64,000 nucleotides of DNA, taken from Escherichia coli. Its GTDB lineage: Bacteria > Pseudomonadota > Gammaproteobacteria > Enterobacterales > Enterobacteriaceae. Positions 13,504 through 40,370 of this stretch are shown in pieces. The position numbers and the translations under genes were made by a program. Location of the stretch: NCBI RefSeq assembly GCF_003018115.1, contig NZ_CP027457.1; one strand, given 5' to 3'. Under the pieces are notes generated by a model that ran no database searches, had not been told where the DNA came from, and saw nothing but the letters and a program-made list of their open reading frames with translations. Position 1 is the first letter of the stretch. Each line of letters begins with the position of its first letter.

Positions 13504-14928
13504 ATGCAACATAAGTTACTGATTAACGGAGAACTGGTTAGCGGCGAAGGGGAAAAACAGCCTGTCTATAATCCGGCAACGGGGGACGTTTTACTGGAGA
13601 TTGCCGAGGCATCCGCAGAGCAGGTCGATGCTGCTGTGCGCGCGGCAGATGCAGCATTTGCCGAATGGGGGCAAACCACGCCGAAAGTGCGTGCGGAATG
13701 TCTGCTGAAACTGGCTGATGTTATCGAAGAAAATGGTCAGGTTTTTGCCGAACTGGAGTCCCGTAATTGTGGCAAACCGCTGCATAGTGCGTTCAATGAT
13801 GAAATCCCGGCGATTGTCGATGTTTTTCGCTTTTTCGCGGGTGCGGCGCGCTGTCTGAATGGTCTGGCGGCAGGTGAATATCTTGAAGGTCATACTTCGA
13901 TGATCCGTCGCGATCCGTTGGGGGTCGTGGCTTCTATCGCACCGTGGAATTATCCGCTGATGATGGCAGCGTGGAAACTGGCTCCGGCGCTGGCGGCAGG
14001 GAACTGCGTAGTGCTTAAACCATCAGAAATTACCCCGCTGACCGCGTTGAAGTTGGCGGAGCTGGCGAAAGATATCTTCCCGGCAGGCGTGATTAACGTA
14101 CTGTTTGGCAGAGGCAAAACGGTGGGCGATCCGCTGACCGGACATCCTAAAGTGCGGATGGTGTCGCTGACGGGCTCTATCGCCACCGGCGAGCACATCA
14201 TCAGCCATACCGCGCCCTCCATTAAGCGTACTCATATGGAACTTGGTGGCAAAGCGCCAGTGATTGTTTTTGATGATGCGGATATTGAAGCAGTGGTCGA
14301 AGGTGTACGTACATTTGGCTATTACAATGCCGGACAGGATTGTACTGCGGCTTGTCGGATCTACGCGCAAAAAGGCATTTACGATACGCTGGTGGAAAAA
14401 CTGGGTGCTGCGGTGGCAACGTTAAAATCTGGTGCGCCGGATGACGAGTCTACGGAGCTTGGACCTTTAAGCTCGCTGGCGCATCTCGAACGCGTCAGCA
14501 AGGCAGTAGAAGAGGCGAAAGCGACAGGGCATATCAAAGTGATCACCGGTGGTGAAAAGCGCAAGGGTAATGGCTATTACTATGCGCCGACGCTGCTGGC
14601 TGGCGCATTACAGGACGATGCCATCGTGCAAAAAGAGGTATTTGGTCCAGTAGTGAGTGTTACGCCCTTCGACAACGAAGAACAGGTGGTGAACTGGGCG
14701 AATGACAGCCAGTACGGACTTGCATCTTCGGTATGGACGAAAGATGTGGGCAGGGCGCATCGCGTCAGCGCACGGCTGCAATATGGTTGTACCTGGGTCA
14801 ATACCCATTTTATGCTGGTGAGTGAAATGCCGCACGGTGGGCAGAAACTTTCTGGTTACGGCAAGGATATGTCACTTTATGGGCTGGAGGATTACACCGT
14901 CGTCCGCCACGTCATGGTTAAACATTAA
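13504..14928 (+). CDS. patD: Gamma-aminobutyraldehyde dehydrogenase PatD (YdcW/Prr)
   Basis: 474-aa aldehyde dehydrogenase-family ORF with catalytic Cys motif (GQDCTAA) and MELGGKAP. Confidence 0.9.
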
Positions 14929-14967
14929 GGATAATATTGCAGATCGTAAGAGTATGAGATGATCTTG

Positions 14968-15001
14968 CGTACTGTCAGAGCACTGATTTCTCTGACAGTA
15001 C
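14968..15001. terminator. Perfect 13-bp inverted repeat between convergent patD and yncL (bidirectional terminator candidate)
   Basis: cgtactgtcagag - cactgatttc - ctctgacagtacg; no clear T-tract, so terminator function is inferred. Confidence 0.45.
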
Positions 15002-15024
15002 GTGCTGCGTGCAAAATCACTACA

Positions 15025-15120
15025 TCAAATAAACCAGCCAAATCTCATAGAGATAAGAGTAAACAAACCAACAGCAGCAAAGACATTTATCAGTACTACA
15101 GTTCTACTGGAAACATTCAT
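15025..15120 (-). CDS. yncL: 31-aa single-pass membrane small protein YncL
   Basis: Hand-translated minus-strand ORF MNVSSRTVVLINVFAAVGLFTLISMRFGWFI-stop; too short for the track. Confidence 0.65.
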   Translation of the reverse strand: MNVSSRTVVLINVFAAVGLFTLISMRFGWFI

Positions 15121-15314
15121 TTTTGCCACCTTTTATCATTGCCCCTATGTGTATAGTACGGGTTAAGAAAATCCGCAATAATACTCATTCTGAAGATGGA
15201 TAAGGGCAAGTTGCTGTTTGATGATTTTTTCTCAAACCGGTGAAAAAACTTGATGCACGTCAAAAAATGACGCATATTTGCGCGCGTTTTATTCATCTGG
15301 CTGGACGCCCGTAC

Positions 15315-15488
15315 ATGTCTCTCTATCAACATATGCTTGTTTTTTATGCGGTTATGGCAGCAATCGCATTTCTTATCACCTGGTTTCTTTCTCACGATAA
15401 GAAACGCATCCGTTTCTTAAGCGCCTTTCTGGTGGGGGCAACATGGCCGATGAGTTTCCCGGTGGCGCTGTTGTTTTCACTGTTTTAA
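15315..15488 (+). CDS. ortT: Small membrane toxin OrtT (YdcX)
   Basis: 57-aa ORF (MSLYQHMLVFYAVMAAIAFLITWFL...) inside track ORF 15240..15488. Confidence 0.7.
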   Translation: MSLYQHMLVFYAVMAAIAFLITWFLSHDKKRIRFLSAFLVGATWPMSFPVALLFSLF

Positions 15489-15573
15489 ATCTTACTCACT
15501 GGCTTGACGGCACCACGCAGACTTATATCATTTGGATGAATCGATAAATTTCACAAGTGGCTAAGGAGAAAGT

Positions 15574-15807
15574 ATGTCGCATCTGGATGAAGTCATCGCG
15601 CGCGTGGATGCCGCGATTGAAGAGAGCGTCATTGCCCATATGAACGAATTATTAATCGCCCTGAGCGATGACGCGGAGTTAAGTCGGGAAGATCGCTACA
15701 CCCAGCAGCAGCGTTTGCGCACCGCTATTGCTCATCACGGTCGCAAGCATAAAGAAGATATGGAAGCGCGCCATGAACAGTTAACCAAAGGCGGCACCAT
15801 CCTGTGA
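15574..15807 (+). CDS. ydcY: Uncharacterized protein YdcY
   Basis: 77-aa ORF with GGAGA Shine-Dalgarno; conserved position. Confidence 0.75.
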   Translation: MSHLDEVIARVDAAIEESVIAHMNELLIALSDDAELSREDRYTQQQRLRTAIAHHGRKHKEDMEARHEQLTKGGTIL

Positions 15808-16257
15808 TTAAAATGAGCGTCTGGCTACCAACCAGGCGCCAACCACAAGTAAAATTGCGCCACAAATTGGGCCGAACAACGCCCGTAGTGGTACGCCATG
15901 ACTGCGGAAGATATCCAGAACCAGACCGCCAATCAGCTGGCTGGCGACCAGTACTGCAATAGTTGTCGCCGCTCCCACATTCTGATATCCGCTGATACTG
16001 GCGAAGACAAAAAACGATCCCAGCAAGCCAGGTATAAGTGTCCACCAGCGCACGCTGGACACCAGTTCGCCAAACCCCGCCATACCTTGTTTAAACCATA
16101 AAATAGAAACAAAGAGCACAATCCCCACCAGTGAGTTCAGCAACATGGCGATGAGAATGGTAGAGGAGGTCTGGGTGATGCGCACCATCAGCGTGTTCTG
16201 GACTACCAGACCAATTCCGGCGGCAATCAAAAAGGCAAGGGTGAGCGACTGATTCAT
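15808..16257 (-). CDS. ydcZ: DMT-superfamily inner membrane protein YdcZ
   Basis: 149-aa hydrophobic ORF, convergent and abutting ydcY. Confidence 0.8.
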   Translation of the reverse strand: MNQSLTLAFLIAAGIGLVVQNTLMVRITQTSSTILIAMLLNSLVGIVLFVSILWFKQGMAGFGELVSSVRWWTLIPGLLGSFFVFASISGYQNVGAATTIAVLVASQLIGGLVLDIFRSHGVPLRALFGPICGAILLVVGAWLVARRSF

Positions 16258-16772
16258 CCAATCGCGTCCGGTTCAGTGCGTTCGTCGAGTTGCAACTGCA
16301 TAAATGTCAGATCCAGCCAGCGCCCAAATTTAGTGCCCACCTGCGGCATTTGTGCGGTGACGACAAATCCCAGCGACTGGTGCAGATGCAGCGAGGCCTG
16401 ATTTTGCGATTCGATCCCGGCGACCATGACATGCTTCCCGCAATCCCGCGCTTCATCAATCAATCGGCTTAACAATTTACGCCCCAGACCTTTGCCCTGA
16501 TGATCGGGATGGACATAAACCGAATGTTCCACGGTATGGCGAAAACCATCGAAACTACGCCAGTCGCCAAATGAGGCATATCCCGTCACTACGCCATCTT
16601 CTTCACTTACCAGCACCGGATAACCTGCTATGGTCCGCGCTTCAAACCAGGCAATGCGGTTATCTGCATCAACCGTTTGGTCATTCCAGATAGCCGCCGT
16701 ATACAACACGGCGTGGTTATAAATTTCCGCAATGGCAGCACAATCGGCTTTGCGGGCAAAACGGATGGACAT
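16254..16772 (-). CDS. mnaT: GNAT-family N-acetyltransferase MnaT (YncA)
   Basis: Start set to ATG at 16772 (MSIRFARKADC..., 172 aa); overlaps the ydcZ start by 4 nt. Confidence 0.8.
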   Translation of the reverse strand: MSIRFARKADCAAIAEIYNHAVLYTAAIWNDQTVDADNRIAWFEARTIAGYPVLVSEEDGVVTGYASFGDWRSFDGFRHTVEHSVYVHPDHQGKGLGRKLLSRLIDEARDCGKHVMVAGIESQNQASLHLHQSLGFVVTAQMPQVGTKFGRWLDLTFMQLQLDERTEPDAIG

Positions 16773-39845: not shown

Positions 39846-40370
39846 ATGGGAAAAGACGAGATCATAGATTATATTCAGAAAACGTTTTCTGAATATCCAG
39901 ATTATTTGAAAAATGGGGTCGTTGATGAAGACAACATTGCATATTGCCATGACGCTATAAACCTTTTTTCTGGAAAGAGTTGGATTGAATTAATGGCCAG
40001 TGATCTTTACCATTCTGAAGATGCTGTCATGTGTCTCACTAAACCAGCATTCTCATATTATATTGCAGCCTATTTAAAACTTTTTATTGAAAATTATTAC
40101 GAAGCTGATGCTTTAGTGGATACTATTTTAAATATGCTCACTCCTCCTGTTAGGAATGGTATCCCCAGCACTACATGGATAGCAAAAAATCTTGATTGCT
40201 TTAGTCGTAATAAAAGGGTGGCTATTTCTTTTACATTCCAATATTTATGTAATGAATATAATGATCCAAATACTGAAAAGGCGTTAAATATATATTGGGG
40301 ACAGTATCTGAATGAATCATTGCTTATTAAAAATGTACAGAACTCTAAAAATAAATGTAAATCACAGTAA
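39846..40370 (+). CDS. Putative cytoplasmic immunity protein for Rhs CT2
   Basis: 174-aa ORF whose ATG overlaps the rhs stop (TAAATG); no signal peptide; AT-rich. Confidence 0.65.
   Translation: MGKDEIIDYIQKTFSEYPDYLKNGVVDEDNIAYCHDAINLFSGKSWIELMASDLYHSEDAVMCLTKPAFSYYIAAYLKLFIENYYEADALVDTILNMLTPPVRNGIPSTTWIAKNLDCFSRNKRVAISFTFQYLCNEYNDPNTEKALNIYWGQYLNESLLIKNVQNSKNKCKSQ

Follow-up and report, generated by a model that had tools for sequence, protein, structure and literature searches.

A covarying, U-less stem-loop at the 3' end of the yncL mRNA of Escherichia coli

Here, we describe a short chromosomal interval of E. coli in which two genes for small membrane proteins lie between patD and ydcY. 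All coordinates refer to the window, i.e. the whole stretch of 64,000 nucleotides of E. coli DNA that was analysed. The gene patD (13504–14928, plus strand), encoding gamma-aminobutyraldehyde dehydrogenase, is convergent with yncL (15025–15120, minus strand), which encodes a single-helix membrane protein of 31 amino acids (MNVSSRTVVLINVFAAVGLFTLISMRFGWFI) and is contained within a 34-amino-acid GTG ORF in the list of open reading frames. Divergent from yncL and separated from it by a spacer of 194 bp, ortT (15315–15488, plus strand) encodes a membrane toxin of 57 amino acids belonging to the GhoT/OrtT family, and ydcY (15574–15807, plus strand) follows. An 801-bp query around this interval was matched in 5,415 of 5,426 complete E. 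coli genomes, one of them at 100% identity, and RefSeq names patD, yncL, ortT and ydcY under the query in identical or near-identical E. coli genomes. The gene order of K-12 MG1655 is that of the window, to which 1,502,074 is added to obtain K-12 coordinates, and the two sequences are identical over 14890–15083.

The presence of a 31-amino-acid protein on the minus strand and a 57-amino-acid protein on the plus strand between patD and ydcY, previously proposed from the sequence alone, is confirmed by the ORF list, by RefSeq and by family profiles. YncL matched NCBIfam NF000537 over residues 1–30 with 72.5 bits (cutoff 35) and OrtT matched Pfam PF10753 over residues 4–57 with 96.9 bits (gathering threshold 22.1). 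YncL is strongly hydrophobic, reaching 2.42 in a 17-residue window, and is polymorphic at residue 13 (15082–15084), where the window strain has V, K-12 has F and several other Escherichia have L. Induction of YncL in stationary phase and under stress has been reported in the literature, its overproduction leads to membrane depolarisation, and OrtT has been described as an orphan toxin.

The interval between patD and yncL harbours a palindrome whose arms (14968–14980 and 14990–15002) are 100% complementary over 13 bp and enclose a loop of 9 nt (14981–14989), so that a stem-loop may form on both strands. The sequence-only reading had rightly called it a perfect 13-bp palindrome, but had placed its end at 15001, one base short of the true end at 15002. 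Located 39 nt past the patD stop codon and 22 nt past that of yncL, i.e. just beyond both, the stem-loop is thus placed between two convergent genes. The stem has 54% G+C and is predicted to fold with −22.5 kcal/mol on the plus strand and −21.6 kcal/mol on the minus strand (z about −4). It is the sole perfect hairpin with arms of at least 12 bp in the 64 kb, simulated windows giving an expectation of 0.025 hairpins with 13-bp arms, and a search allowing up to 3 mismatches found one match in the window and none in 100 shuffles. The next-longest perfect hairpins of the window (39871–39896 and 57135–57160) have arms of 11 bp and loops of 4 nt, and both are AT-rich (TTCAGAAAACG / CGTTTTCTGAA and TGATTTATCAC / GTGATAAATCA). 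Covariance models of Rfam gave no relevant match at E ≤ 10 over 14000–16500. A promoter-like match within the hairpin (14978–14951, minus strand), with 9 of 12 positions matching, was no better than chance and was discarded.

REP and BIME elements are families of extragenic palindromes that occur in many copies and stabilise the mRNA upstream of them. The yncL element is similar in being an intergenic palindrome that would be able to block 3' exonucleases, but it differs in being single-copy: across 5,411 E. coli genomes the hairpin had a median of one copy per genome and two at the highest, and on this count, together with its single match in the window, we discarded a REP-type repeat. Plasmid-labelled records of the E. 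coli genome collection account for six of the matches to the 96-bp hairpin region.

Two open reading frames on the plus strand run across yncL, one of 65 codons (14959–15156) that is antisense to yncL, and one of 54 codons with a GTG start (15002–15166) in the +1 register. The first had been set aside as spurious in the sequence-only reading, which held that yncL occupies the opposite strand in the same codon register. The register is as claimed (15025 − 14959 = 66 = 3 × 22), and the spurious nature of the ORF is borne out by its substitution pattern, by the loss of its ATG and by indels that shift its frame. In nine Escherichia sequences, 17 distinct substitutions were found in the yncL region; 12 of these are synonymous in the yncL frame, all at third positions, at a random-mutation expectation of 23% (P = 5e-5), and on this pattern the yncL frame is evidently under purifying selection. 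The same 17 substitutions are synonymous in 2 cases and non-synonymous in 15 when read in the 14959–15156 frame (P = 0.8). The ATG at 14959 is AAG in 9 of the 15 sequences compared, including 6 of 9 typical E. coli strains, and is lost also in E. albertii and in SCPM-O-B-8794, and in other species the frame is shifted by two indels, one of 2 nt in the loop and one of 1 nt at 15121, immediately 5' of the yncL ATG.

The 15002–15166 frame has 10 of 17 substitutions synonymous and a start codon that is not conserved. This frame looks conserved only as a shadow of yncL, with which it has its third codon positions in common, and the case illustrates how an antisense frame with common third positions can mimic purifying selection. 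The notion that one of these ORFs encodes a real small protein, with the hairpin lying inside coding sequence, may draw on this signal and on the absence of stop codons from the frame, where it overlaps yncL, in every Escherichia sequence that was compared. It is nevertheless hardly credible in view of the start codon lost in most strains, the frame-shifting indels, the 2 of 17 synonymous changes in the longer ORF and the shared third positions expected to produce the signal in the other. Furthermore, neither ORF had a family match in profile searches of Pfam and NCBIfam, a 17-residue window as hydrophobic as that of YncL or a recognisable domain, and no plus-strand gene is annotated over yncL in K-12 or in about 5,400 RefSeq genomes. 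By these comparisons both long antisense ORFs over this small-protein gene are most probably artefacts, i.e. non-coding shadows of yncL.

The evolution of the palindrome was followed with YdcY as bait, which yielded 80 enterobacterial loci. In only six of these, all from Escherichia, were yncL, ortT and patD found beside ydcY (E. coli E69, E. whittamii, Escherichia sp. MOD1-EC7003, E. albertii, 'E. coli' SCPM-O-B-8794 and Escherichia sp. E1V33), and the remaining 74 were uninformative on the hairpin. The alignment was complemented by six variant E. coli haplotypes. Eight central pairs of the stem are invariant, and compensatory changes have occurred at 4 of the 13 pairs, where C-G is replaced by U-A, G-C by A-U or C-G, U-A by C-G and U-A by A-U. 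Pair counting showed 98.7% of the cells to be paired and the 4 pairs to be altered on both sides; none of 500 shuffles reached the observed covariation and register-shifted controls were all far lower. The loop varies both in sequence and in length. These paired compensatory changes around a variable loop indicate that selection has acted on the structure rather than on the sequence. All orthologues retain a predicted stable fold on both strands (−20 to −29 kcal/mol), with G-U pairs possible on the plus strand only in two orthologues and on the minus strand only in one, a polarity that cannot decide which strand selection would favour. Two loop alleles are found at 14981–14983 within E. coli: CAC is carried by the window strain, K-12 and strains 1190 and ET76, and AGT, which extends the stem by 1–2 pairs, by the other E. 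coli strains examined and by all other species.

The compensatory changes also bear on the possibility that the palindrome serves at the level of DNA, as an operator for a dimeric regulator or as a cruciform or recombination site. The perfect dyad symmetry, the half-sites containing CTGT...ACAG and the junction, some 35 bp upstream, of a presence/absence polymorphism of about 1.3 kb would all suit such an element. However, paired changes in the stem, transversions among them, together with a central spacer that varies in sequence and length are expected of base-pairing and not of protein contacts. The site is located at the 3' ends of both genes and its promoter-like signal is not above chance, and the abundant RNA end found at the stem (see below) accounts for the palindrome directly. 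An element of this type is accordingly considered very improbable. The LexA box is CTGT-N8-ACAG; with a spacing of 19 nt between CTGT and ACAG instead of 8 nt, this particular operator was rejected.

Mapping of transcript ends around 14968–15001 had been suggested as a check on the palindrome, and published data now provide it. Term-seq by Adams et al. 2021 (PMC7815308, Supplementary file 1) places a 3' end on the minus strand at 14965 (K-12 1517039), which is 3 nt past the stem. The RNA terminus there reads ...CUCUGACAGUACGCAA, and the flank given in the Term-seq table is ...CGTACTGTCAGAGAAATCAGTGCTCTGACAGTACGCAA before and GATCATCTCA after the end (PMC7815308). The end is very abundant, with 75,265 reads in LB at OD 0.4 (logarithmic growth) against 536,300 in LB at OD 2.0 (stationary phase), and is present also in the third condition, M63 (PMC7815308). 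These 3'-end data, like the Rho data discussed below, derive from K-12 and not from the window strain, in which the sequence of the element is identical. The end defines a yncL 3' UTR of 60 nt (14965–15024, minus strand), from the stop codon to the mapped terminus and with the stem-loop included. In the published table the end is labelled 'antisense patD' and not yncL (PMC7815308), because the rule for a 'primary' end requires a distance of at most 50 nt from an ORF. The TERMITe supplements have no entry for the yncL locus.

Upstream of yncL, sequence inspection on the minus strand points to a putative Shine-Dalgarno sequence GGTGG (15126–15130), a candidate sigma-S-like −10 element C-TATACA (15150–15156) and a possible −35 element TTGCGG (15173–15178). 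The palindrome is the 3' stem-loop of the short yncL mRNA, a minus-strand transcript running from a predicted start at about 15146 to 14965 and measuring about 180 nt. A SELEX peak of RpoS holoenzyme has been reported in the yncL/ydcX spacer. In Salmonella, the yncL orthologue (STM14_1932) gives rise to a discrete short RNA, STnc1110, an orthologous sigma-S-dependent coding transcript for YncL (PMC5437024), and the sigma-S control of this RNA is in keeping with the steep increase of the E. coli 3' end in stationary phase. The rise of the reads at 14965 agrees likewise with the SELEX peak and with the reported induction of YncL. The two Salmonella loci retrieved with YdcY (L029 and L032) showed no yncL at distances of up to 4 kb from ydcY.

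An exhaustive phmmer search with YncL returned nine cluster representatives, and the two divergent ones (63% and 70% identity) that were placed on contigs (loci L089 and L094) again show yncL divergent from a gene of the OrtT family, with different outer flanks. The outer neighbour in these distant yncL-ortT loci is an alpha/beta hydrolase instead of ydcY. The CTATAC motif upstream of yncL is kept in these relatives, as a −10-like CTATAC/T at equal distance from the gene, and a hairpin is located 22–41 nt past the yncL stop codon in both. In L089 this is a textbook terminator composed of an A-tract, a GC stem and a U-tract, and L094 has a palindrome of 10 bp, unrelated and lacking a U-tract. 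The occurrence of hairpins after the yncL stop in both relatives suggests that a 3' hairpin is a constant need of the small yncL mRNA, which seems to be met by non-homologous sequences. In Klebsiella indica (L071), a homologue of ortT is present and no recognisable yncL was found in the 288 nt available upstream of it.

A stable hairpin in the short space between convergent genes calls to mind a canonical intrinsic terminator, which is often bidirectional and folds on both strands, and the palindrome could accordingly be taken for a Rho-independent terminator shared by patD and yncL. Such a role would be in line with its equal folding on the two strands, with the listing of patD-yncL among published pairs of convergent genes with overlapping transcripts, with the textbook terminator at the same place in L089 and with the G-U pairs that are valid on the plus strand only in two orthologues. 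The palindrome departs from canonical terminators, however, in its loop of 9 nt, its modest G+C content, the lack of U- and A-tracts and the offset of the RNA end. On both strands the stem lacks a U-tract after it and an A-tract before it: on the minus strand the first 8 nt past the stem (CAAGAUCA) contain one U and the stem is preceded by GCAGCA, and on the plus strand 3 of the 9 nt past the stem are U. A scan for consensus terminators did not call the site. The sequence CAAGAUCA past the stem and the location of the RNA end only 3 nt away, and not 7–9 nt into a U-run, make a poor fit to intrinsic termination. Moreover, no plus-strand end near 15003–15012 was reported in the three growth conditions of the Term-seq study (PMC7815308), and minus-strand transcription downstream of the hairpin is sensitive to bicyclomycin. 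A bidirectional terminator operating despite the missing U-tracts is thus unlikely, though worth considering.

Downstream of the hairpin, a zone antisense to patD (14679–14765, minus strand) has a reported Rho termination position at 14679 (K-12 1516753). This position is 286 nt beyond the 3' end and has a Rho score of 16.6 (P = 5e-21; PMC7815308, Supplementary file 2), a regional measure over 800-nt windows, and the bicyclomycin-sensitive antisense RNA could come from a promoter of its own instead of from yncL. Treatment with bicyclomycin raised the downstream reads at 1516753 from 9 to 72 and lowered the upstream reads from 220 to 106 (PMC7815308). Along the minus strand, C exceeds G in all 80-nt windows between 14965 and 14486 (25–38% against 18–24%), and the bias peaks at 14686–14765 with 38% C and 20% G.

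[quoted passage not shown] The yncL transcript resembles the members of this class in its precise and dominant 3' end past a stable stem-loop, in the absence of a U-rich tail and of an upstream A-tract and in the C-over-G bias downstream, and by the regional score it may do so in bicyclomycin-sensitive transcription beyond the stem-loop. It differs in that its protection from exonucleases and its dependence on Rho are deduced, and in that the published end carries the label 'antisense patD'. The U-less end, the Rho region, the C-over-G bias and the likeness to this class together favour the reading that the yncL palindrome protects, as a 3' stem-loop, a transcript terminated by Rho, i.e. a further case of an already described class, to which we assign a probability of about 0.72.

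According to this preferred reading, transcription of yncL would start at a sigma-S-type promoter and RNA polymerase would read through the U-less hairpin, to be terminated by Rho a few hundred nucleotides further on in C-rich sequence antisense to patD. The RNA terminated at 14679 would thereby be yncL read-through. Its tail would then be shortened by 3'-to-5' exonucleases until the stable 13-bp stem halts them, and the end at 14965 would be the product of this trimming, precise and abundant 3 nt beyond the stem. By fixing the 3' end and protecting the yncL mRNA, the stem-loop would contribute to the accumulation of the transcript in stationary phase.

The hairpin could conceivably work on the patD transcript too, given its equal predicted stability on the plus strand and the two orthologues with G-U pairs restricted to that strand. 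A more far-reaching proposal is that it constitutes the hinge, acting both ways, of an excludon formed by patD and yncL, in which it would stabilise the yncL mRNA and, together with Rho, set the reach of sigma-S-driven antisense transcription into patD. If true, the induction of the conserved, membrane-depolarising yncL-ortT pair in stationary phase would be coupled to lower putrescine catabolism, but we regard such an arrangement as distinctly doubtful.

The yncL locus is real but ordinary, and carries little weight beyond a tidier annotation. A very abundant published 3' end, so far labelled 'antisense patD', is now assigned to the yncL mRNA, the 3' UTR of which is thereby defined, and a probable new example, well backed by covariation, is added to the known class of protective stem-loops without U-tails.

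Other RNA ends and a polymorphism were observed in the immediate surroundings. The 3' end of the ydcY mRNA is located by Term-seq at 15844 (K-12 1517918, plus strand), inside the 3' end of the convergent gene ydcZ and directly past a U-less hairpin (GCGTCTGG...CCAGGCGC), which makes it the second such end at a distance of 0.9 kb. A weak 3' end designated 'orphan' is found at 15283 (K-12 1517357, plus strand), 32 nt upstream of the ortT start, in the sequence GCGCGCG followed by TTTTATT; it has an intrinsic-terminator score of 3.18 and a Rho score of 0.5, and may be a site of 5'-UTR attenuation for the toxin gene ortT. Between the patD stop and the hairpin (window 14920–14950; 1177–2512 in locus L002), an AT-rich insert of about 1.3 kb encoding a CatB-related O-acetyltransferase is present in 13 of 60 evenly spread E. 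coli rows, i.e. roughly a fifth, and in Escherichia sp. MOD1-EC7003. The motif TAAA[C/T]ATTAAG is common to both junctions of the insert, which suggests that it has been deleted or inserted through a short direct repeat.
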